A DNA stretch of 25,060 nucleotides from NCBI RefSeq assembly GCF_004010195.1, contig NC_057718.1, positions 39,922,579 through 39,947,638 on the forward strand, given 5' to 3'. This document shows, piece by piece, positions 1-24,824 of the stretch. Origin of the DNA: Chiloscyllium plagiosum. Taxonomy: Eukaryota. A model generated the notes under the pieces. That model saw only the letters and a list, made by a program, of their open reading frames with translations. It was not told the DNA's origin and did no database searches. The position numbers and the translations under genes are program-made. Positions within the stretch are counted from its first letter, which is position 1. Each line of letters opens with the position of its first letter.

Positions 1-1915
1 TAATAGTCAGCACCCCACATCGGTACGGACCATATTAAATCAGAAAGCAGGACAATGGCTCACAGGCTCTAGGATCTTGAAATATGAGGCAATTTTAATA
101 GAGAAGGATGACCTTGTGTTAGTCACAGACAGTTGCTTAAATCCAGCTGCATTCCTGTGGCATGGAGACGGGGAGGCCCCTGGTAATCCAGAACACGACT
201 GCCTCGATATTATTGAATATCAGGCAAAAGTATGGATGGACTTAAGGGACATCTCGCTGCATGCGGGAGCTCAGTTGTTTATCGACGGGTCCTCCTGGAT
301 GATTGAGGGTAAAAGGCACAATGGATATGTAGTAGACGGGATAGAGGGAAGCGTTATTGAGGCTGAAAGACTGCCTAATGGCTGGTCAGCCCAAACTTGT
401 GAACTCCATGCCCTAGAAAGAGCTCTCAGAGCCTTAGAAAACAAGGAAGGAACGGTGTATACAGACTCCAAATATGCATTTGGAGTGGTAACACTTTCGG
501 AAAAATTTGGCAAGAAAGAGGACTAATAAATAGTCGAGGAAACAAACTAGCACATGAAGAATTGATAGAATGAATACTAGAATCCCTGTTACTCCCGAGG
601 GAAATAGCGATAGTTCATATAAATGGACATCAAAAGAGGAATTATCCGGAAGTAAGAGGAAATAGACTGGCCGATGAGGTAGCTAAAGAAGCGGCCCTGA
701 ATCTATAAGGAGCCACAATATACTCCATAATACCAGTAATTCCGGATCCTCAGGGTACCCCATTGTTTACTGCAAAGGAGGAAAAGGAACTAAAAGTCTT
801 AGGGGCAACAAAGACAGTGGTTGGGCACTGGATGTTACCCGATGGGAGAGAGATGTTGAATAAAATGATGATGCGAGAGATTATGGCTGTCCTATATCAG
901 GGGAGTCATTGGGGAGTGCAAGCAATGTGTGATTTAGTCTTAAGGAAATATGGATGCAAAGGGATATATACGATAGCCAAACAGATATGTGTGGGATGTA
1001 TAACATGCATGAAGGTAAACAAGAAGGTGCTAAGGAAACAAGTCCCAGGAGGGAGAGAGCCTGGGCTAAGACCATTCCAGAGCATCCAGGTAGATTATAC
1101 CGAATTACCCAGAGTGGGAAGACTGAGATATGTTGGTAATAGTTGATCATTTATCTGGATGGGCGGAGGCGTATCCTCTGGCCACTGCCACTGCAAGTGG
1201 GGTGTCCAAGATAATACTTGAACACATAGTTCCCAGATATGGGATAGTGGGGTGTATAAATTCGGATCAGGCAACTCACTTTACCTCCAGGGTACTCCAG
1301 GGAACGATGAAGGGGTTAGGGATCTCCTGGGAGTTCCACACCCCTTGGCACCCACCCTCATCAGGAAAGGTTGAGAGAATGAACCAGACACTCAAGAGGC
1401 AGTTATCTAAATTAATAATAGAAACCAGACTCCCTTGGACTAAGTGTTTACCTTTAGCCCTCTTGCGAGTGCGGACGGCCCCAAGGAAAGATTTGGGGCT
1501 GTCCCCTTATGAAATATTGTTTAGCTTGCCCTACTTGGGAACAAAAGGGGAACTGCCAATCCCAGAAACTAAAGATTTGTTCTTAAAGAAGTGTATACTG
1601 GGCTTGACCTCCTCTTTGTCTTTCCTCAGGAAACAGGGTTTATTGGCACAGACTCCGCCCCTTATATTCACCGTTCATCCCATCTGGTCGGGAGATTGGG
1701 TCCTGATTAAGTCATAGACAGAAACTAAATTGCAACTGGATTGGGAGGGACCATACCAGGATCTTTTGACTACCAAAACGGAGATAAGAACGGCGGAGAA
1801 AGGATGGACTCACTACACCAGGATTAAGGGACCAGTGGAATCCCTGGTTGAGAAAGAAGTCTGGACAAACGAATCAACGCAAGAACCACTGAAGCTCAGG
1901 CTAAAAAGACTTTAA
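1..1915 (+). pseudogene. pol: Retroviral pol 3' part (RT connection, RNase H, integrase), disrupted
   Basis: Connection VRTILNQKAGQWLTGSRILKYEAIL. RNase H motifs LFIDGSS, SAQTCELHAL, VYTDSKYAFG, IVHINGHQ, GNRLADEVAK. IN Zn finger Y(for H)QGSHWG...CITC (895-1008). Catalytic D 1093, D 1265, E 1373 give D(35)E spacing. C-terminal WEGPY. Frameshifts near 22, 491, 1129; in-frame stops at 571, 706, 1715; terminal TAA 1913-1915. Confidence 0.95.
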
Positions 1916-2006
1916 GTGACTGATTATACTGTGACGACGTGAGCACTGGATGTTTTTTTTAATAGATTGGATGTAAAGTCTCTCAGCGCTTCAATACTAC
2001 TGTAGA

Positions 2007-3746
2007 ATGCTGGGGATGCTTAGAGTTATGATATTAGCTCTCTTAGTATTGGGATTTTGTCAAACATCGTCTCCACACTTGTTATTAACGGTTCCTGAGT
2101 CTGATAATCCGCAAGTAATAGACGCCGATGCATGCAGCTTAGTAAATTGTGGGGATGTAGATAATCAGAGACAGTACCGCAGCTCAGAGATACATCTTAA
2201 GTCCTATGGGGATGGTACTTGGTATAATGGTCTTGTCACAGTACACCGGACCCCCTTCCGACCAACTCTCGATTATCCCGATAAAAAGTGTAACCCAATA
2301 TACCTAAAGATAAAGAAAACCACATGGCACGAAGCGATTCGGTGGGGGGAACACCTATCGGGTACAATTAAATGAAACATTTGGGATAGAAATGAAAACA
2401 AACAGGAAGGATTTCTCGGACTGTTGTTTTCAAATTAGCATAGGAATAGGAAAGGGAAAACGGGCCGAACAACTGGATATAAGATACAACCTTTCATCCC
2501 TGCCAATGACCCTAAGGTGGTAAAAATTATAGAGGTGAAGGGCTTGAAACAGACCATCAAAATAGAAACTGAATACGGGGATGCAAATGCCTGTGTAGAA
2601 TGGGTAAAGTATGCTGTATGAAGTCTGAATAAGAGCAATTGCTATGCATGTGCCTCCGGTAGACCAATGGTTCAAGTAGTCACCTTTCCGCTCGGGTGGA
2701 AGCAAAACAGGAGGGGCATGACATGCATGATAGCCCTGTATCAGGATGAAACTGCATGGAGTAATAAAAAGTGTATGCCCCTTCTATTAATGTTCCCTCC
2801 TTTAAAGAAGGAAGGTTTAAAGACGCCCCTCCATGTTTTCTGCCGTGGTCAGAAACCACACATCGTGTGTAAACAGGCGAGGAACAAATCGGTCCAGATA
2901 TTTGGGGGAACTGAAATCATGTACCGAAATTGAGTATGAGATGGAAAAGGGAGGAAACTACTCAGCACTGAAGGTTCCCCGAGCGGATCTGTGGTGGTAT
3001 TGGGAGGTAAAATATTGAGACCCACCCTACTTCCAGATTGGAGAGGGATTTGTGCAATTGTACAATTGACAATCCCATTCAACTTGGCATTTGAAAAGGA
3101 GAAGATAGCAATAAAAAGGGGGAGGAGTAAAAGATCATTATTAGACACTTCTTTTGATGATAGGATTTATCTAGACTCTATAGGAGTTCCTAGAGGGGTA
3201 TTGGATGAGTACAGATTGCAGCAGGTTTTGAATCGGCTCTATTCTGGTGGGTAACGTTCAACAAGAATGTGGACTGAATAAACTATATTTTCTAAAATCA
3301 GCAAAGATTCATCAATTACACTAAGGATGCAGTCAAAGGCATAGCAGAACAGCTTGATGCAACCAGTAGAATGGCCTGGGAAAGTAGAATGGCCTTAGAT
3401 ATGATCTTAGCTGAAGAAGGGGGTGTATGTATGATGTTAGGAGGGAGATGCTGTACTTTTATTCCAAATAATACAGCACCTGATGGGTCAATCACTCGTG
3501 CCTTGCGAGGATTGACCACCATGGCGGAAAACTGGCTGAGAATTCAGGGGTGGACACATCATCACGGGATGGCTGGAATCATGGTTTGGGAAATGGAAGG
3601 GAGTGGTAGTCTCCATCCTCACCTCCCTGATAGTGGTAGCAGGGGTACTGGTAGCAAATGGCTGTTGTATCATACCTTGTGTATGGGGACTAACCCAACG
3701 GCTGATTGAGACAGCCTTGGCAAAACAGATGCCCCTAAACGGGTAA
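2007..3746 (+). pseudogene. env: Gamma-type retroviral env, disrupted
   Basis: Signal peptide MLGMLRVMILALLVLGFC; SU CXXC motif CYAC (2640-2651); furin site RSKR (3123-3134); ISD-like ESRMALDMILAEEGGVC; CX6CC CMMLGGRCC (3428-3454); membrane anchor VVVSILTSLIVVAGVLVANGCCIIPCV (~3603-3685). Stops at 2619, 3275, 3293 and several frameshifts. 3' end uncertain; the tail may have run toward the PPT. Confidence 0.93.
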
Positions 3747-3885
3747 TCAGGCAGAGGAACTCTACCCCTTGAACAATGAGGGGATGAGTGACCTTGAGGC
3801 CAAGATGGACGAAGTCTTGGGGATGATGCTTGCAAATTTGGGGACGACATATGAGAGAAATGCAGAAAACAACAATTATTTTTTT

Positions 3886-3897
3886 AAAAAGGGGTAA
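3886..3897 (+). other. Polypurine tract (plus-strand primer), preceded by a T-run
   Basis: TTTTTTT-AAAAAGGGGTAA directly before the LTR-initial TG at 3898. Confidence 0.85.
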
Positions 3898-4261
3898 TGT
3901 GAGAGGCGCTTGCAAATGTTGTTGTTTCTGCAAAAATCACAAGGTTGAATCATGATGGGGGGGGATATATGTCAAGCTAGACATGCTTGCACAAACAGCT
4001 ACAAGTAGCTGCATCTTGCTTCTGCAGGAATCGCAAGGCGGAATCATGAGGGTGAATACCAAGAAATAACTAACCGAAATGGGAGGTAGTCGACTGGTAG
4101 AAATAGATATATTGACATGACAGTTGCAATTGTCACGCACTTAGGGAGTTAATATGAAAAAGATAACCAAATAAGACCCAGTGTTGTGTCAGCAAAAGTA
4201 ATAAGACTCAGCTATCAAGGGGGGGGCATGCTAACAACAGGCCACAGACAGATGTGGTAAG

Positions 4262-4315
4262 CCAATTAGATTAGCAGCTGCACAGAGCAATACAACTATC
4301 ACATATGAAGTATAA
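4262..4315 (+). promoter_or_regulatory. LTR U3 promoter candidates: CCAAT box (4262-4266) and TATAA (4311-4315)
   Basis: Motifs lie ~50 bp apart and ~100 bp upstream of the poly(A) signal, the usual LTR layout. Confidence 0.55.
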
Positions 4316-4414
4316 GGGGAGTACCGAGAGACTCAGCTGAACTGTATTAATTGTAATGTAACCTCCTGATCGGTGTGCCTACTTTGTGGTCACCCAGGCT
4401 TGCAAGAACGTATG

Positions 4415-4420
4415 AATAAA
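4415..4420 (+). terminator. LTR polyadenylation signal
   Basis: AATAAA about 60 bp before the LTR end. Confidence 0.7.
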
Positions 4421-4509
4421 GACTGCTTCAGAATTTGACTCAGACTGAAATTATTGAACAGTAAGCTTCGTTTCTCACAGGTAATATTTTCAAAGCAAAG
4501 ACAAACATA

Positions 4510-4715: not shown

Positions 4716-5052
4716 CTAATACTTTGCTATTCAGGTTTCAGAGATGAATAAACAATGTTCACTCCATTGTATTATTTGCATCAAAACATTCTGAAAAATT
4801 CTGCCTTTGAAGTGAAGAATTAAATTATGCTTACCAAAATGGCTATTAAAGTTTGTCATAATTGAAATAATTGTGCAAAACTCGTCATGCCTTATCTTCA
4901 AACTTACCTGAGGTATGTTAATTTTCCCAAAGTATTGACACGAATGTTGTGAAATGAAACAGTATGCAGCCTTATTTATTCTAAGTTGTGAGTTGCATTA
5001 TGAATAAGAGAATTGAATCATTAATAGCCAAACCATGACTGACAATACAATG

Positions 5053-6159
5053 TCATGGGCACCCGCATGGGCCCCAGCTATGCCTGCCTCTTCGTTGGAT
5101 ATTTGGAACAGTCCATCTTCCGCAGCTACACTGGCACCACCCCCCACCTTTTCCTCCGCTACATCGATGACTGTATCGGCGCTACCTCGTGCTCCCATGA
5201 GGAGGTTGAACAGTTCATCCACTTTACTAACACCTTCCATCCCGACCTCAAATTTACCTGGACCATCTCAGACTCCTCCCTCCCCTTCCTAGACCTCTCC
5301 ATTTCTATCTCGGGCGACTNNNNNNNNNNNNNNNNNNNNNNNNNNNNNNNNNNNNNNNNNNNNNNNNNNNNNNNNNNNNNNNNNNNNNNNNNNNNNNNNN
5401 NNNNNNNNNNNNNNNNNNNNNNNNNNNNNNNNNNNNNNNNNNNNNNNNNNNNNNNNNNNNNNNNNNNNNNNNNNNNNNNNNNNNNNNNNNNNNNNNNNNN
5501 NNNNNNNNNNNNNNNNNNNNNNNNNNNNNNNNNNNNNNNNNNNNNNNNNNNNNNNNNNNNNNNNNNNNNNNNNNNNNNNNNNNNNNNNNNNNNNNNNNNN
5601 NNNNNNNNNNNNNNNNNNNNNNNNNNNNNNNNNNNNNNNNNNNNNNNNNNNNNNNNNNNNNNNNNNNNNNNNNNNNNNNNNNNNNNNNNNNNNNNNNNNN
5701 NNNNNNNNNNNNNNNNNNNNNNNNNNNNNNNNNNNNNNNNNNNNNNNNNNNNNNNNNNNNNNNNNNNNNNNNNNNNNNNNNNNNNNNNNNNNNNNNNNNN
5801 NNNNNNNNNNNNNNNNNNNNNNNNNNNNNNNNNNNNNNNNNNNNNNNNNNNNGGACTCAGCACCGCCTTCTTGACCTGCAATCATCTTCCCGACCTCTCC
5901 GCCCCCACCCCCTCTCCGACCTATCACCCTCACCTTAACCTACTTCCACCTATCGCTTTCCCAACACCCCTCCCCCAAGTCCCTCCTCTCTACCTTTTAT
6001 CTTAGCCTGCTTGGCACACCTTCCTCATTCTTGAAGAAGGGCTTATGCCCGAAACATTGGTTCTCCTGCTCTTTGGATGCTGCCTGACCTGCTGCACTTT
6101 TCCAGCAACACATTTTTCAGCTCTGATCTCCAGCATCTGCAGTCCTCACTTTCTCCTCC
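5053..6159 (+). mobile_element. 5'-truncated Penelope-like element with 14-bp TSD, spanning an assembly gap
   Basis: RT motifs MGTRMGPSYACLFVG, FLRYIDD (YIDD 5160-5171), LPFLDL; 3' terminus shared with other PLE copies; exact direct repeat CTGACAATACAATG at 5039-5052 and 6160-6173. Confidence 0.9.
5320..5852. other. Assembly gap (533 N); a second 10-N gap lies at 15492-15501
   Basis: Runs of N in the sequence. Confidence 1.
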
Positions 6160-7955: not shown

Positions 7956-8088
7956 CATTCCTGATGAAGTGCTTATGCCCGGAACGTCGCTTCTCCTGTT
8001 CCTCTGATGCTGCCTGACCTGCTGTGATTTTCCAGCACTACACTTTTTGACTCTGATCTCCAGCATCTGCAATCCTCACTTTCTCCTA
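7956..8088 (+). mobile_element. Solo PLE terminal repeat (pLTR) starting with a degenerate hammerhead motif
   Basis: Closely similar to 6026-6157; ATTC-CTGATGA-AGTGCTTATGCCC-GGAA-CGTC at 7957-7988. Confidence 0.85.
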
Positions 8089-8089
8089 G

Positions 8090-8283
8090 AGGAAAGTTGG
8101 TGTCCTGCTTTGCAGACAGGGTCATGGAGATGCAGCTGGATGGGGCAGTTCAGAGGCAGGCCACAACAACAGATCATACCAACCTAGCTGAGGTTTTCAC
8201 CTGGGTTAAAGTAGTCTCAGTCGTCTGGACGAATTGCCCAGTTCTGTTCGGAACAAAGACAATGACCTATTCCACTCTGCCAG
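8090..8283 (+). pseudogene. Degraded Myb/SANT-like DNA-binding ORF, probably from a Harbinger/PIF transposon
   Basis: Across frames: CFADRVMEMQLDGAVQR ... AEVFTWVKVVSVV ... RNKDNDLFHSA, matching the F..E..LL / W.EVA..V / RKK.NDL pattern of MSANTD/Harbinger Myb domains. Confidence 0.4.
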
Positions 8284-8718
8284 CATAAGTGTGTCACCTT
8301 CTCTCTGATAGCTACACTCACTCTATCTCTGCCTTTGTACACACCACCTACCAAGTTGCATGCTGTCCCAATCTCACTATTTTCTGCACCATTTTACCCC
8401 ACTCACTGTCACCAACCTGACCCTTGTCAACATTAACTCTGCATATCTCCTGTGCTGCCTACTGACTCACTTGTGTCACTTCCCCATCTGTATAAGCTGT
8501 GCCACCCACTTTCATCTCCTGTGATACCCAGTCATCTCTCATTCAAGGAGGAAAACAGCTACCAGTAGAGGAGAAAGAATCAAGACGGGTGGTGGGCTGC
8601 CTAAAATTTGGCTCCTCACCCCCTTATGTGAACACTGTCTCAACTCTGACCATCTATAGAGGCTGACTGACTGTCTCTAAGCCCCTGAACTACAGTCAGA
8701 GGCTGGCCTTGACTTACT

Positions 8719-9703
8719 GTGCCAGGGGGTCCTCTACTTTTTGTCATTTATATAAATGATTTGGATGTGAGCATAAGAGGTATAGTTAGTAAGTTTGCAG
8801 ATGACACAAAAATTGGAGGTATAGTGGACAGTGAAGAAGGTTACCTCAGGTTACAACAGGATCTTGATCAGATGGGCCAATGGGCTGAGAAGTGGCTGAT
8901 GGAGTTTAATTCAGATAAATGCGAGGTGCTGCATTTTGGGAAAGTAAATCTTAGCAGGACTTATTCACTTAATGATAAGGTCCTAGGGAGTATTGCTGAA
9001 CAAAGAGATCTTGAAGTGCAGGTTCATACCTCCTTGAAAGTGGAATCGCAGGTAGATAGGATAGTGAAGAAGGCGTTTGGTATGCTTTCCTTTATTGGTC
9101 AGAGTATTGAGTACAGGAGTTGGGAGATCATGTTGTGGCTGTACAGGACATTGGTTAGGCAACTTTTGGAATACTGCCTGCAATTCTGGTCTCCTTCCTC
9201 TCGGAAGGATGTTGTGAAACTTGAAAGGGTTCAGAAAAGATTCACAAAGATGTTGCCAGGGTTGCAGGATTTGAGCTATAGGGAGAGGCTGAATAGGCTG
9301 AGGCTGTTTTCCCTGGAGTGTCGGAGGCTGAGGGGTGACCTTATAGAGGTTTACAAAATTATGAGGGGTATGGATAAATAGACAGAATCTTTTCCCTGAG
9401 GTCAGGGAGTCCAGAACTAGAGGGCATAGTTTTAATGTGAGTGGGGAAAGATAAAGAAGAGACCTAAGGGGCAACGTTTTCACACAGAGGGTGGTACGTG
9501 TATGGAATGAGATGGTAGAGGAAGTGGTGGAGGCTGGTACAATTGCAACATTTGGATGGGTATATGAATAGGAAGGGTTTGGAGAGAAATGGGCTGGGTG
9601 CTGGCAGGTGGGACTAGATTGGGTTGGGATATCTGGTCGGCATGGACATGTTGGACCGAAGGGTCTGTTTCCATGCTGTACATTTCTATGACTCTACGAC
9701 TCT
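8719..9703 (+). mobile_element. 5'-truncated CR1 LINE (HER1-like), relatively young
   Basis: Open 220-aa frame with GPLLFVIYINDLD, KFADD (FADD 8794-8805), FNSDKCEVLHFG, LERVQKRFTK; frameshift near 9375; 3'UTR stem-loop ggaccgaagggtct and tail ctatgactctacgactct. Confidence 0.95.
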
Positions 9704-9805
9704 TTGAGTGAAAACTATCCCCTTGACTGAGGCCTGTTGAAGACCAGGACAAGCTTCTTGCCTTTGTGTCTGCATTAAACAGCGTGGCAAAACTGGCTTA
9801 ATATG

Positions 9806-10172
9806 AAACAAAAGCAGAAGTTGCTGGTGAAATTCAGCAGGTCTGACAGCATCTGTGGGGAGAAAGCAGAGTTAATGTTTCAAGTCCCCTGCTGACTCTG
9901 GGGGAGCAAGAAGTCCTGCCTCTGAACCACCCCATCCAGTTGCATCCCCATGACCCTGCCTGCACCAATTTTCCTTTGTCTACCAATTCAAGGCAAATAT
10001 CAGGAACGATGCAGGGAAGCTGGTGGTGTGGGCTCAAGGGATGTTGGTCTTCATCAGAATTTACAGTCACCAGACTCGAAACATTAACTTCACTTCTCTC
10101 CATACCTGCTGAGGTTTGCCAGCATTTCCTGTTTTTGTTTCAGACCTCCAGCATCTGCAGTTCTTTGTTTTC
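9806..10172. mobile_element. Fold-back PLE terminus (inverted pLTR arms) with ~160 bp of unrelated sequence inside
   Basis: 9806-9886 is the imperfect reverse complement of 10073-10140; hammerhead halves tcttcatcagaa (10048-10059, minus) and agtcaccagactcgaaacattaac (plus) lie at the junction. Confidence 0.7.
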
Positions 10173-11147: not shown

Positions 11148-11752
11148 TCAAGCCCCCTAAAAGACTCTTCCCAATATATTATTTTGAAAGAGCAAAAATA
11201 TTCTAGAAATTATTAGTGCTGTGCAATTGTAAATGTTGGTTACATTTGCACTCAATGGACACCATATGGAATCCATCCAGCTCAGTGTATGTTTTGCTTA
11301 TCTTGGTTGTTTTTTCTACAAATGCAGCTGATTCTTCAATACACTTGGCAGGAGGTACACCGCTACACTCTGCAGTAACCTATAATTCCAAACTTTTATT
11401 TTCTACCTTTATCAACAATTGAGATAACATTTCACTCTCAGCATTTACTTTATATTAATAATTATTTACTTTTATTTGTTAAATTCTCATATTTAATATC
11501 TTTTAATAGTAGGGGCATAGCCACGTATTCCGATCCTGTGTTTGAAAGCTGCAGAGACAGCAGGAATTCTGCTTTATTATGATGCCTGCAATTCCTTGTT
11601 GTATATTTATATACTGTGGAAATGGAATTAAGTTTAAAAGTCTTCCAAAAATGTTTCAATGAAGGTGCTAAACAGTGGTAAGTGAAATTCACAACTGAGT
11701 GGAAAACTAGTTTGACCAGTCAGCCTGGCATCATTTGTAACAGCACTAAAAG

Positions 11753-11937
11753 GGAGATCGTGAGAACTGCTGATGCTGGAGAGTCAGAATCGATAAAGGG
11801 TGATGCTGGAAAAAACACAGCAGGTCAGACAGCATCTGAGGAACAAGACATTTGACGTAATATGCCCAAAACTTCAACTGTCTTGCTCCTCAGCTGCTGC
11901 CTGACCTGCTGTGCTTTATCCAGAGCCACACTTTATC
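11753..11937. mobile_element. Short fold-back PLE-derived insertion with ~14-bp TSD
   Basis: Arms 11792-11850 and 11879-11937 are imperfect inverted repeats of the PLE terminus; flanked by AACAGCACTAAAAG (11739-11752) and AACAACACTAAAAG (11938-11951). Confidence 0.85.
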
Positions 11938-12046
11938 AACAACACTAAAAGAATTAGTTTAAACTATGATTTGGAGATGCTGGTGTTGGACTGGGGTTAC
12001 AAAGTTAAAAATCACACAACATCAGTCCAACAGATTTAATTGGAAG

Positions 12047-12081
12047 CACTAGCTTTCGGAGTGCTGCTCCTTCATCAGGTG
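12047..12081 (-). ncRNA. Minimal type I hammerhead ribozyme motif, core intact
   Basis: Minus strand CAC-CUGAUGA-A-GGAG(CAGCA)CUCC-GAAA-GC-UA-GUG: stem I CAC/GUG, stem II GGAG/CUCC, loopless palindromic stem III (AGCU), CUA triplet. Confidence 0.75.
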
Positions 12082-12554
12082 GTTGTGGAGTACACAATTG
12101 TAAGACACAGAATTTATAGCAAAAGACACTCACAACCCCCTCACCCCAGACACACACACACATGCACACACATGCACACATACAAATATACATTTGTGGA
12201 TTGAATTTGTACTTGCAGAGAAACAATGTACTTTGCTCAAAAACTACATGAATCCATGTACGACACTGTTAACTAATTTTTTAGATTAAAATCAGTCTAA
12301 ACATTATGGCACAGACAACAGCACACAGGGGGCTAACACCTTCAACACATTATCTGGGCTAACACTAATTGTCACAGTTAACTTTTTAAAAAGTTTTGTG
12401 ATTTACATATGAAAGAAGTGAAACTATCATGGCCATTCTAACAGATGAGAGACTTAATAAACAATCAAGGTATTTTTCAATGTATAATTTCAGTTACATC
12501 ACACTGTAAACTTTTGCTATAAATTCTGTGTCTTGCAATTGTGTACTCCATAAC

Positions 12555-12589
12555 CACCTGATGAAGGAGCAGCGCTCCGAGAGCTAGTG
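12555..12589 (+). ncRNA. Minimal type I hammerhead ribozyme motif with one core substitution
   Basis: CAC-CUGAUGA-A-GGAGC(AGC)GCUCC-GAGA-GC-UA-GUG; conserved GAAA is GAGA (12579-12582). Confidence 0.65.
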
Positions 12590-13500
12590 CTTCCAATTAA
12601 ACCTATTGGACTATAACCTGGTGTTGTATGATTTTTAACCTAGTTTAAACTAACTCACTAATTACCTTGAAAATGTATATTTTGTGATTTTTAGAAATTA
12701 ACATGAAATGTACCACTGGTCATATCAGGAAATAGAAGGGAGAGAGGAACTCTGAAAAGTTGCAGTCACCAGGGAGGTGGTACTGAGTAACTTGTTGGAG
12801 CTGAGGACTTAGAAGTGCTGCAGTTCTGGTGGACTTTATCCTCAGGTCTTAAATTATGTTTTTACTGGGATAGCTAATGCACCAATTTTAACTTTCCAAA
12901 ATTCCCTCAATTCTGCAGATGGTCTATTAGAATGGAAAATGGCAAATGTAATTCAAAAAGGGAGGGAGACAGTTAGCAGGTAACCCCAAGCTAGTTAGCT
13001 AATGCCTGTTATAGGGAAATGTTCAAAGCTATTAGTAAAAATATAATGGGACACTCAGACAGTTCACGGTAATTAGATAGAGTCAATTTGGTTTTCTAAA
13101 AAGAGAAAGCACGTATAACCAATTTATTGTAGTTCCTTGAGGAAGTATTATTCAAAGTATAAAGTGCAACCAGTGGGTGTATTGTAATTAGATTTCCAGA
13201 TAGCATTTGATAAGGTGCCATATCAAAGGTATTGCAGAAAATAAAAGCTCATAGTACAGGGATAACAGATTGGCATTGATAGAAGGTTGACTAGCTAACA
13301 AGAAACAAAAGTTAATATAAATGGTTCATTTTCTGGTGGGCAAGACATAACAATTGGGGTACCACAGATATCAGTGCTGGGTCATCTTAAAGAAATGAGC
13401 TAGATGAAGGGAATAAAGGTATGGTTGCTGCACTTGCTGATGACAACAACATAGATAGGAAATAAGAGAAGAGAAGCTAAAGGGATATTGATTATTATTG

Positions 13501-14629: not shown

Positions 14630-16345
14630 ACTGAACTAATTTCTACCTACCTCGATGCTGTCCTATCCCCCCAGTCCAGTAAGTCCCCACATATGTTCGA
14701 GACACCACCCATGCCCTCCATCTCCTCCAAGACTTCCGTTCCCCCAACACCTAATCTTCACCATGGATATCCGATCCCTCTACACCTCCATCCGTCATGA
14801 CCAGGGCCTCCAAGCCCTCCGTTTCTTCCTCTCCCAACGTCCCCAACAGTACCCTTCCACCGACACTCTCATTTGTTTGGCCGAACTGGCCCTCACCCTT
14901 AACAATTTCTCCTTCAAATCCTCCCACTTCCTCCAGACCAAAGGGCACCCGTATGGGCCCCAGCTATGCCTGTCTCTTTGTTGGCTACGTAAAACGGTTG
15001 ATCTTCCATAATTACACCGGCACCACTCCCCACCTCTTCCTCCACTACATTGATGACTGGCGCCACCTCGTGCTCCCACGAGGAGGTTGAACAATTCATC
15101 AACTTCACCAATACATTCCACCCTGACCTTAAATTTACCTGGACCATCTCTGACACCTCCCTCCCCTTCCTGGACATCTCCATCTCCATTAATGACGACC
15201 GACTTGACACCGACATGTTTTACAAACCCACCGACTCCCACAGCTACCTGGATTACACCTCTTCCCACCCTACCTCTTACAAAAATGCCATCCTCCATTC
15301 CCAATTCCTCCGCCTCCACCGTATCTGCTCCCAGGAGGACCAGTTCCACCACAGAACACACCAGATGGCTTCCTTTTTTAGAGATAGCAATTTCCCTTCC
15401 CACGTGGTTGAAGATGCCCTTCAACACATCTCGTCCACATCCCGCACCTCCACCCTCAGACCCCACCCCCTCCAACCGTAACAAGGACAGANNNNNNNNN
15501 NTCCCTCCCCACCCCTTTCCGCCTTCCACAAAGACTGTTCCCTTCATGACTACCTGGTCAGGACCACGCCTCCCAACAACCCACCCTCCCGGCTTGGCAC
15601 CTTCCCCTGCCAACGCAGGAATTACAAAACCTGCGCCCACACCTCCTCCCTCACCTCCATCCAAGGCCCCAAAAGAGCCTTCCACATCTACCAAAGTTTT
15701 ACCTGCACATCCACCAATCTCATTTATTGTATCCGTTGCTCCCGATGCGGTCTCCTCTACATTGGGTAGACTGGACACGTCCTAGCAGAGCACTTTAGGG
15801 AACATCTCTGGGACACCCGCACCAATCAACCACACCGCCCTGTGGCCCAACATTTCAACTTCCCCTCCCACTCAGCCGAGGACATGGAGGTCCTGGGCCT
15901 CCTTCACCGCCGCTCCCTCACCACCCGACGTCTGGAGGAATTACGCCTCATCTTCTGCCTCGGAACACTTCAACCCCAGGGCATCAATGTGGACTTCACC
16001 AGTTTCCTCATTTCCCTTTCCCCCACCTCACCCCAGCTCCAAACTTCCAGCTCAGCACTGTCCCCATGACTTGTCTTACCTGCCTATCTTACCTCCGCCC
16101 TGACCTATCACCTTCATCCCCTTCCCCACTCACCTATTGTACTCTATGCTACTTTCTCACCACCCCCACCCTCCTCTCATTTATCTTTCCACCCTTCAGG
16201 CACTCTGCCTGTATTCCTGATGAAGGGCTTTTACCCAAAATGTCAATTTTCCTGCTCCTCGGATGCTGCCTTGAACTTCTGTGCTTTTCCAGCACCACTC
16301 TAATCTAGACCCTGGTTTCCAGCATCTGCAGTCATTGTTTTTACA
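14630..16345 (+). mobile_element. 5'-truncated Penelope-like element (probably Neptune-like), RT plus GIY-YIG endonuclease, disrupted
   Basis: FTMDIRSLYTSI, MGPSYACLFVG, YIDD (15046-15057), FYKPTDSHSYLDY; Cys-rich linker GTFPCQRRNYKTC; NLIYCIRCSRCGLLYIG* (15716-15769); C-terminal GTLQPQGIN; 3' pLTR ending gtcattgtttttac. Confidence 0.93.
16213..16248 (+). ncRNA. Degenerate hammerhead motif in PLE pLTR (another degenerate copy at 6027-6060)
   Basis: ATTC-CTGATGA-AGGGC(TTTT)ACCC-AAAA-TGTC-AATT; GAAA mutated to AAAA, consistent with CpG decay. Confidence 0.55.
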
Positions 16346-16445
16346 TAGTAGTAGTGTCCTTACCCCTGGGCAAAGTGGCCTAGGTTCAAATCCCACCTCC
16401 TTCTGAGGTCTGTAATAACATCTCTGAACCGGCTGATGAGAAAAG
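16346..16445 (+). mobile_element. tRNA-derived short element; its 5' tip probably lies at ~14614-14629, separated by the PLE
   Basis: agtagtagtgtcctta...GGTTCAAATCC (B box)...gaggtctgtaataacatctctgaaccggctgat matches the reverse complement of the array units at 20312-20925, whose 5' ends read gggctcttgtgg (compare ggccctcttgtga at 14614). Confidence 0.75.
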
Positions 16446-16810: not shown

Positions 16811-17125
16811 AACAAAAAAACTGGAAGAACTATGGATGCTGGAAATCAGAAAAAAAACAAAAACTGAAAATGCTGGAAAACTCAGCAGGCCTGCCAGCAC
16901 CTGATGCAGAGGAATCAGAGTTAATGTTTCAGGTCCAGTGACCCTTCTTCAGAACTGACGATAGTTAGGAAAAGGATTATATTAATGCAGAAGATGGGGT
17001 GGGGGAGGGGGGAGACTAAACAATAGGTGGAGATAGAGCCCAAAGAGAGGGCAAACCTTTGACAGACAAAGGAGTGGTTAAAGGCCAACCTAGGGGAATG
17101 AATAGCTGCTAATGGGGCTATTTAC
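16811..17125 (-). mobile_element. PLE 3' terminus (further subfamily) with hammerhead motif at 16920-16955
   Basis: Minus strand GUU-CUGAAGA-A-GGGUC(ACUG)GACCU-GAAA-CA-UU-AAC followed by the pLTR block gcaggcctgctgagttttccagca...tttccagcatcc. Confidence 0.8.
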
Positions 17126-17869
17126 CTCTGTGTCCAAAGAACAAATTTAGACTTTTGATTTTGTCCCTGCTGTAGTGGTAAACCTGGACAGAAAATCTGT
17201 GAAGAAGAACAGTTTTGCAAGGTTAGAGAGGTTATTCAATTCACAGTTTTCAGGATATATTTCCAGGAAGAAACTGATGCAACGTGGTGAAATTGCTTTT
17301 AAAAATATATTTTCTTGCTACAAACATGCCTTGTTAAGCAGTTTCATTTCGTGCTTGAAGCAGATATGCCAGAATTGCCAATGGCTTCAATCATGTGCAG
17401 CTTCTGTAACAAAATAATATTATTTTCAGTAACTTATCACTATAAGATATTTAAATAGAAGTACTTATTTGATTCAAATTACCATGCTTGACTGTATTCT
17501 GGGTGAAACCTGATGAAACATGGCTAACTGAGTGTGATAGTGAGCTTGTTTCCTGCATGGCATATGTTATGAATTGCATTAAGTGTTCATGTTACTTCAA
17601 CTGTTTTAATAAACTACTTTGTATATTTTTGATAATTCTGTCCAGAATTATGTTTAAACTTTACATTGAGGTGTGCAATGTTCCCTGGATGAGCAAATAA
17701 TGCTAAGTACCTGATCAGTAGTGCAGACAGGAAAATTAAGGACTCCTTTCTTTTATGTCAAGGGAAAAAGTGACTTTAAAACGTATAATTTCTGGGAATA
17801 TCAATTTGTTCACAGACCATCAATTAACTGTAGGGGGAGAACATAGCAATCTACAATAAAAAAAACTAT

Positions 17870-17955
17870 ACTAGAGAAAACTATTCAAGTCTGGCAGCAT
17901 CTGTGAAGAGAGGAAACAGTTGGCATTTCAAATCAAATGTGCCTGTTCTTCAGAT
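17870..17955 (-). mobile_element. Degraded solo PLE terminus
   Basis: gtctggcagcatctgtgaagagaggaaacagttggcatttc...ttcttcaga resembles 9840-9886 and 16885-16955. Confidence 0.6.
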
Positions 17956-18608: not shown

Positions 18609-18738
18609 TAAAAGCAAATACCGCAGATGCTGGAAATCTGAAACAAATGTAGAAAATGCTGGAAAGATTCAGCAGGTCTAGTAGCATTGGCAGAGAGGAA
18701 AACAGAGTTAACGTTTCGTATGACTCTTGTTCCAAAAC
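18609..18738 (-). mobile_element. Solo PLE terminus
   Basis: gcagatgctggaaatctgaaac...cagcaggtct...agagttaacgtttcg matches the other pLTRs and ends in a decayed hammerhead. Confidence 0.75.
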
Positions 18739-18759: not shown

Positions 18760-18859
18760 GTGCTGGCAAATGGAACTAGATTAGGTTGGAATATCTGGTC
18801 GGCATGGACGAGTTGGACCGAAGGGTCTGTTTCCATGCTGTACATCTCTATGACTCTAT
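18760..18859 (+). mobile_element. CR1 3' end, same family as 8719-9703
   Basis: Closely matches 9598-9697 (atatctggtcggcatggac...ggaccgaagggtctgtttccatgctgtaca...ctatgactcta). Confidence 0.9.
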
Positions 18860-24502: not shown

Positions 24503-24824
24503 AGATGTGTGCATTGCTGACAAGTTATTAATTATTGCCCATTGTTAATTTCCTTGAGACAACTGATTTGCTTGCTGGGCTATATCAGAGGGTTAAAAAC
24601 AGCTACCACCCCCACGCTGATTGATGATGTCACTTCTGCCCCCATCATGGCCACTCCCACAGCAGATGTGTGCATTGCTGACAAGTTATTAATTATTGCC
24701 CATTGTTAATTTCCTTGAGACAACTGATTTGCTTGCTGGGCTATATCAGAGGGTTAAAAACAGCTACCACCCCCACGCTGATTGATGATGTCACTTCTGC
24801 CCCCATCATGGCCACTCCCACAGC
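24503..24824. repeat. Perfect 161-bp tandem duplication
   Basis: 24503-24663 and 24664-24824 are identical on base-by-base reading. Confidence 0.95.

Follow-up and report, generated by a model that had tools for sequence, protein, structure and literature searches.

Penelope-like elements (PLEs) are described as leaving 5'-truncated insertions, to whose 5' end a second 5'-truncated copy is often attached in inverted orientation; the PLE tail, an extension of 30-40 bp, is often present at one end only (Craig et al. 2021, PMC8557442). The same layout was reported for Pen2a by Arkhipova et al. (2013, PMC3846280), with target-site duplications (TSDs) of 8-10 bp and with head-to-head copies being common. 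The minimal hammerhead ribozyme (min-HHR) was inactive as a single motif, while dimers and trimers were weakly active, and in Schistosoma pairs of hammerheads lie on opposite strands about 100-700 bp apart (Cervera and De la Pena 2014, PMC4209133). For PAc, the Poseidon element of Anolis carolinensis (Frangieh et al. 2024, PMC11167929), a predicted dimer was described that nicks and extends both strands and prefers AT-rich DNA with ATT. Its reverse transcription in vitro had two internal start sites, which bracket the tail and are located near an AC-rich stem-loop, 111-118 nt into an ORF beginning at hammerhead stem II; the hammerhead of this lizard PLE had help from protein (PMC11167929). Non-LTR retrozymes have been reported in one chondrichthyan genome (Li et al. 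2026, 10.64898/2026.07.22.740005).

The window analysed here, the whole stretch of 25,060 nt from Chiloscyllium plagiosum (contig NC_057718.1, positions 39,922,579 to 39,947,638), contains a head-to-head unit with a hammerhead motif on each strand at positions 11955 to 12652. With a probability of about 0.82 this unit represents one dead insertion of a Penelope-like retrotransposon with an endonuclease (EN+), and minimal hammerheads are its passengers.

Structure of the unit and of its ends

The 12-mer TAGTTTAAACTA was found at 11955-11966 and at 12641-12652 and nowhere else in the window. It is its own reverse complement, and its two copies, which we take to be the left and the right TSD, are separated by 674 bp. 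Two inverted arms were located between them, one of 122 nt on the minus strand (12004-12125) and one of 129 nt on the plus strand (12511-12639). The preliminary description had claimed a 674-bp unit with arms of about 125 bp and a perfectly palindromic 12-bp TSD; the size and the arms were borne out, and so was the 12-mer as a palindromic flanking repeat. The alignment of the arms showed 8 substitutions in 122 columns, all of them transitions, and one gap of 7 nt, a deletion in the left arm relative to the right. The 674-bp unit folded back on itself at -279.6 kcal/mol (z -19.7, 20 shuffles).

Both arms were read as copies of a pseudo-LTR (pLTR). The left arm, a 5'-truncated copy, continues outwards into an AC-rich PLE tail of 37 nt (11967-12003, minus strand), which forms the 3' strand of a hairpin of -16.3 kcal/mol, while the right arm ends, according to the arm alignment, at a short end without a tail. 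We read the single-copy spacer of 385 nt (12126-12510, plus strand) as non-coding sequence from upstream in the longer of the two 5'-truncated copies; it is presumably collinear with the parent element. The unit accordingly consists of two 5'-truncated 3'-end copies placed head to head, one of 514 bp on the plus strand with the short end and one of 159 bp on the minus strand with the tail, whose 5' ends meet at the junction 12125/12126. No hairpin is centred on this junction, and the bases to the right of it were unpaired in the fold of the whole unit. All three frames of the plus strand contained stops between 12193 and 12640. Self-BLAST gave no second copy of the 674-bp unit in the window. 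A run search with positions 11400-13200 listed 24 runs, 18 of which share part of this stretch (3 organisms, 6 studies); five runs contained at least half of its words, and these shares are uninformative on the junction, on copy number or on an empty site. Exact-pattern scans for the hammerhead region yielded 0 loci in metagenome contigs and 0 in viral contigs; shark DNA is hardly to be expected in such collections, and this negative result carries no weight.

Outwards, the left arm exceeds the right one by 37 nt (11967-12003). Since this extension sits on the left arm only, terminal inverted repeats, which define a MITE, are absent at the true ends: comparison of the left end inside the repeats with the reverse complement of the right end gave a match of just 9 of 37 nt, and the unit was rejected as a MITE on this basis. 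A further criterion for a MITE is a large number of copies with uniform length and ends, and one copy was seen in the window. A MITE derived from a DNA transposon, with hammerhead-like sequence present by coincidence in its long inverted repeats, would also be non-coding with inverted arms, and a dimeric transposase would lead to a palindromic target such as the flanking 12-mer. A preference for palindromic targets is known for DDE transposases. Several features speak against this origin. Inside the TSD the two ends do not mirror each other, a tail of PLE size displaces the arm, the arm carries a full min-HHR, and the TSDs at neighbouring PLE insertions are likewise about 12-13 bp long. We therefore regard a DNA transposon as hardly credible.

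Perfect 12-mer palindromes were present at 10 of the 24,484 N-free positions of the window, two of these being the TSD copies, and the expectation from local base composition was 4e-4 per random 12-mer. When the flanks are joined, the symmetry is one base longer on each side (T at 11954, A at 12653). In an alternative reading the TSD is 13 bp long and contains one mismatch (11954-11966 and 12640-12652). The TSD search, in which bounds were set by eye, gave flanking repeats for four of the nine elements tried; the three neighbouring candidate TSDs, obtained from the eight other elements, were non-palindromic and all came from another family. We read the palindromic TSD as chance plus a bias at its ends. 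Such a site is rare for one random site, but the rarity is tempered because the site was chosen after the fact, and symmetry at the TSD ends would be expected from a two-strand nick that followed one sequence preference. The palindrome is the one detail beyond the PLE model, except at its ends. Neither palindromic PLE target sites nor MITE-like PLE families were found by title and abstract in a search that lay outside most subscription journals, Repbase and Dfam. It is rather unlikely that the junction is a one-off and the TSDs of the family are nevertheless enriched in palindromes. If true, symmetric two-strand nicking and two-sided priming would gain genomic support from such TSDs.

As the 12-mer is palindromic, it is a direct and an inverted repeat at once, and sequence alone cannot separate a TSD from an inverted end. 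A single PLE stub might have been duplicated later in inverted orientation by local repair or fold-back synthesis, in which case the 12-mer would be the outer end of the duplication and no TSD. This explanation is weak because a copy reaching the flank would have carried the 37-nt tail, and the right side is without it. The same asymmetry also occurs with an unambiguous direct TSD in the adjacent element. A later duplication is very unlikely.

Hammerhead motifs and predicted folding

Two hammerhead cores were located 480 bp apart, beginning at 12078 (minus strand) and 12558 (plus strand). The minus motif (12047-12081) has an intact core (CTGATGA...GAAA) with a predicted cut between 12050 and 12049. 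In the plus motif (12555-12589) comparison of the cores showed a change from GAAA to GAGA, and the position equivalent to the cut is 12586/12587. A hammerhead on each strand, the intact minus core with this cut and the changed plus core had all been claimed before, and each was confirmed. The GAAA>GAGA change lies in the conserved core, and its effect is judged from known hammerhead mutants. The minus hammerhead is composed of stem I (CAC/GUG), CUGAUGA, one extra A, stem II (GGAG/CUCC) and GAAA. Helix III is a 4-nt palindrome without a loop, formed by the last A of GAAA and the next three bases, and is followed by the cleavage base. The traits of a min-HHR, namely the extra base after A9, the G10.1-C11.1 pair and the palindromic positions 15.2/16.2, were present. 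With regard to core, stems I and II and loopless helix III, the minus copy is a full min-HHR, while the plus copy has GAGA. Judged from these motifs, the hammerhead is of the loopless, dimer-dependent type.

A descriptor of the loopless minimal hammerhead matched these two sites in the window and none in 200 mononucleotide shuffles; it was composed after the motif was known, and the test was not blind. Rfam showed no hammerhead match in this region down to E=1. An Rfam match to SCARNA7 (E 0.41) was taken as chance, and a relaxed hammerhead match at 17510 with a 4-nt loop, which was uncontrolled, was treated in the same way. An ATG within the hammerhead core is followed by a stop after 8 codons.

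The hammerhead was not the minimum-energy state of the isolated arms (z -1.65 and +0.36), the fold with stems I and II reaching -6.2 versus -9.0 kcal/mol. For stem II the pairing probability was 0.18 when the left arm was folded alone and 0.0 in the fold of the whole unit, in which the hammerhead bases were paired with the opposite arm at a mean probability of 0.94 (minus) and 1.0 (plus). The duplex of the two arms was predicted at -192.9 kcal/mol. A transcript of either strand contains one sense hammerhead, and the antisense arm is transcribed first.

The folding prediction supports the earlier claim that a read-through RNA would form a long duplex that could mask the ribozyme. The preliminary description had also implied a working ribozyme from either direction of transcription, and this part did not stand: the motif is of the loopless type, whose monomer was inactive in a published assay, the plus core is changed, and the antisense arm comes first on either strand. 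Cleavage at this unit is predicted to be unlikely because the motif needs a second sense copy or the help of protein, and because the sole sense copy per strand is predicted to be locked in the duplex of -193 kcal/mol. The hammerheads are read as passengers of the pseudo-LTR, and from the predicted folding they are probably silent here. A more elaborate alternative is a 'retro-MITE' family of non-autonomous fold-backs with a fixed junction, which a PLE protein would spread; its dimeric endonuclease would pick symmetric, palindromic targets, and the duplex would hold the hammerhead off until the protein opens it; we consider such a family quite improbable.

If the locus is transcribed, the likely effect would be an imperfect double-stranded RNA of about 120 bp. 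Penelope repeats were reported to be heavily edited (A-to-I) in a lizard (PMC5625713), and by analogy such fold-backs could collectively be a large source of double-stranded RNA and of A-to-I editing in sharks.

Neighbouring insertions and the homologue at znrf1

A hairpin element of another PLE family lies immediately to the left of the unit (11753-11937, insertion 11739-11951). Its arms are located at 11753-11848 (minus strand, with tail) and 11861-11937 (plus strand, tail-less), and its TSD of 14 bp has one mismatch and is non-palindromic. The right TSD of this neighbour ends 3 bp before the left TSD of the 674-bp unit, and two insertions of different PLE families are therefore found within 3 bp of each other. 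The hairpin matched Rfam MIR533 with 51 bits, under the cut-off of 80 bits. For the 674-bp unit an identity as a microRNA hairpin was rejected, and the match of its neighbour is a warning that in annotation units of this kind can be mistaken for microRNA hairpins or MITEs.

The 3' end of this second family also closes a degraded element at 14630-16348, an EN+ PLE on the plus strand with several stops and frameshifts, a decayed hammerhead and a tail. In its translation we recognised what we take to be RT motifs, a thumb, a cysteine-containing linker and a GIY-YIG-like motif. Its Atlas neighbours carry HTH_animal at 0.96. Pfam gave no credible match in 11 fragments of this frameshifted PLE, a match to ATR1_WY-dom (E 0.017) being below its cut-off. 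The two PLE families share 10 nt only, which are the hammerhead core. The second family thus serves as a control within the window: it shows the head-to-head layout to be local routine and does not supply the parent of the unit.

More 3' ends of the second family with decayed hammerheads were found at 5043-6157 and 7956-8087, the former element spanning an N gap and having a non-palindromic TSD of 13-15 bp. Diverged PLE-like ends, with TSDs mostly unrecovered, are located at 9800-10171 (head-to-head), 16825-17000, 17878-17950 and 18610-18720. Positions 1-4460 contain the remnant of an endogenous retrovirus on the plus strand, whose frames are broken into short pieces by stops; Pfam matched Integrase_H2C2 and rve in it, and TLV_coat in the env frame was below the cut-off. 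A LINE fragment at 8713-9696 matched RVT_1 (E 1.3e-07), and its last 99 nt occur again at 18760-18858 with 92% identity. Around this fragment lies an inverted pair of 50 nt (8111-8160 and 9915-9964), 90% complementary and 1754 nt apart. A perfect tandem of two copies of 161 bp at 24503-24824 arose either by a very recent duplication or as an artefact of the assembly.

The left arm has a chance reading frame, which was the probe for protein searches. Among longer proteins this frame had no match in 8 candidates, and among proteins of near length there were no candidates. Two matches, P0001 and P0002, were obtained among 50% representatives. P0001, a repetitive protein of 1358 aa with 39% identity over 21 stretches, was dropped as spurious. 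P0002 is a predicted isoform of Chiloscyllium plagiosum znrf1, the last 25 residues of which (194-218) match the left-arm frame at 22 of 25 positions. The similarity ends upstream of the hammerhead region and short of the 12125/12126 junction; the difference upstream, in this one case, may be a splice junction. From its sequence the arm homologue at the Chiloscyllium znrf1 locus is most simply a dispersed repeat, and the C-terminal peptide of P0002 is an apparent exonisation or an artefact of the gene model. P0002 has K where the plus copy has E, which implies GAAA there, and the GAGA of the plus copy is for this reason taken as the derived state. A protein search for a parent with RT and GIY-YIG, using the chance frame as a probe, yielded the apparently exonised fragment alone.

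Proposed insertion route and comparison with known systems

The unit had been described as a product of an inverted-pLTR PLE that merely looks like a DNA-transposon MITE. This reading is supported by the one-sided 37-nt tail, the lack of true terminal inverted repeats, the minimal hammerheads and the same layout in the adjacent PLE-derived insertion. We infer a Penelope-like parent for the family of the unit. The 12125/12126 junction is presumably a one-off, and the indirect evidence leans that way; its uniqueness is judged from the known mechanism, the neighbouring element and the one homologue outside the window.

In the proposed route the RT-endonuclease of a PLE would cut an AT-rich target with two nicks spaced by 12-13 nt, one on each strand at the far end of the 12-mer. 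Both 3'-OH ends would then prime reverse transcription, each at one of the two start sites bracketing the tail, the top-strand 3'-OH giving rise to the tailed arm and the bottom-strand 3'-OH to the tail-less copy. The two short cDNAs would finally be joined in the middle. By this route the fold-back shape would arise at insertion and would need no fold-back master. Given a PLE origin, we lean slightly towards this two-sided priming. The bottom-strand nick deduced from the TSD is followed by ATT, while the context on the top strand is ACT; a TSD of 13 bp would remove the agreement with ATT. The long end is 104 nt from hammerhead stem II, or 111 nt if the 7-nt deletion is counted. Arkhipova et al. 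(PMC3846280) favoured self-priming for inverted junctions, and the inverted copy could likewise have been produced by self-priming at a palindromic junction. Self-priming fits less well here because the 5' end of the left arm matches a position 385 nt away from the junction, next to which the bases are unpaired.

Alternatively, the unit might belong to a non-autonomous family of fold-backs that share a fixed junction. A PLE protein would then mobilise the whole unit in trans, using a minus-strand transcript that ends in the tail. The clean TSD and the intact core on the tailed arm would agree with this, and cargo flanked by pLTRs was described as mobilisable in trans (PMC3846280). Non-autonomous PLEs exist, for example MRC1 (PMC8557442), and tandem retrozymes have been proposed to be PLE-derived (10.64898/2026.07.22.740005). 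However, self-BLAST showed no second copy in the window, the one outside homologue stops short of the 12125/12126 junction, the region recognised by the RT is predicted to lie inside the duplex of -192.9 kcal/mol, and the adjacent family gives the same shape with a different spacer. A fixed-junction family is unlikely, and it keeps what weight it has because non-autonomous PLE derivatives exist.

As a single dead PLE insertion the unit by itself matters little, being one more example of a published pattern. It is a tidy example in which the tail, the target and the two ends can all be read, and together they fit two-strand nicking and two start sites of reverse transcription, as in the lizard PLE in vitro.

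Compared with MITEs, the unit is likewise short, non-coding, capable of folding back and flanked by putative TSDs, but it has no terminal inverted repeats at its true ends and shows hallmarks of a retroelement. With the non-LTR retrozymes, as described by Li et al. (10.64898/2026.07.22.740005), it shares the lack of coding sequence, the type I hammerhead and the derivation from PLEs. Retrozymes form head-to-tail arrays with two sense hammerheads per RNA, whereas the copies of the unit are head to head with one sense hammerhead per strand; since the copies are inverted and there is no head-to-tail tandem array, a non-LTR retrozyme was rejected. Like the min-HHRs of metazoan PLEs, the hammerheads have type I topology and a loopless palindromic helix III. 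Stems II and I comprise 4 and 3 bp here, compared with 7-8 and 4-5 bp in S. mansoni, and sharks are not among the hosts named from abstract to discussion of that report (PMC4209133).

The closest agreement in layout was with inverted-pLTR insertions of EN+ PLEs, which also have head-to-head 5'-truncated copies, a one-sided tail (37 nt here), a short TSD (a candidate one here) and a hammerhead in the pseudo-LTR. The unit differs from the published EN+ PLE insertions in that it has no ORF and in its perfectly palindromic TSD, and its junction is without a centred palindrome, unlike the A. vaga junctions that were read as self-priming. In contrast to PAc, no ORF starts at stem II in the unit, and the PAc study (PMC11167929) demonstrates no formation of inverted insertions. 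PAc and the unit have in common two ends separated by the tail, beside which lies an AC-rich stem-loop at roughly 110 nt downstream from stem II, as well as an AT-rich target (a putative one here) and, in the proposed route, the use of both strands.
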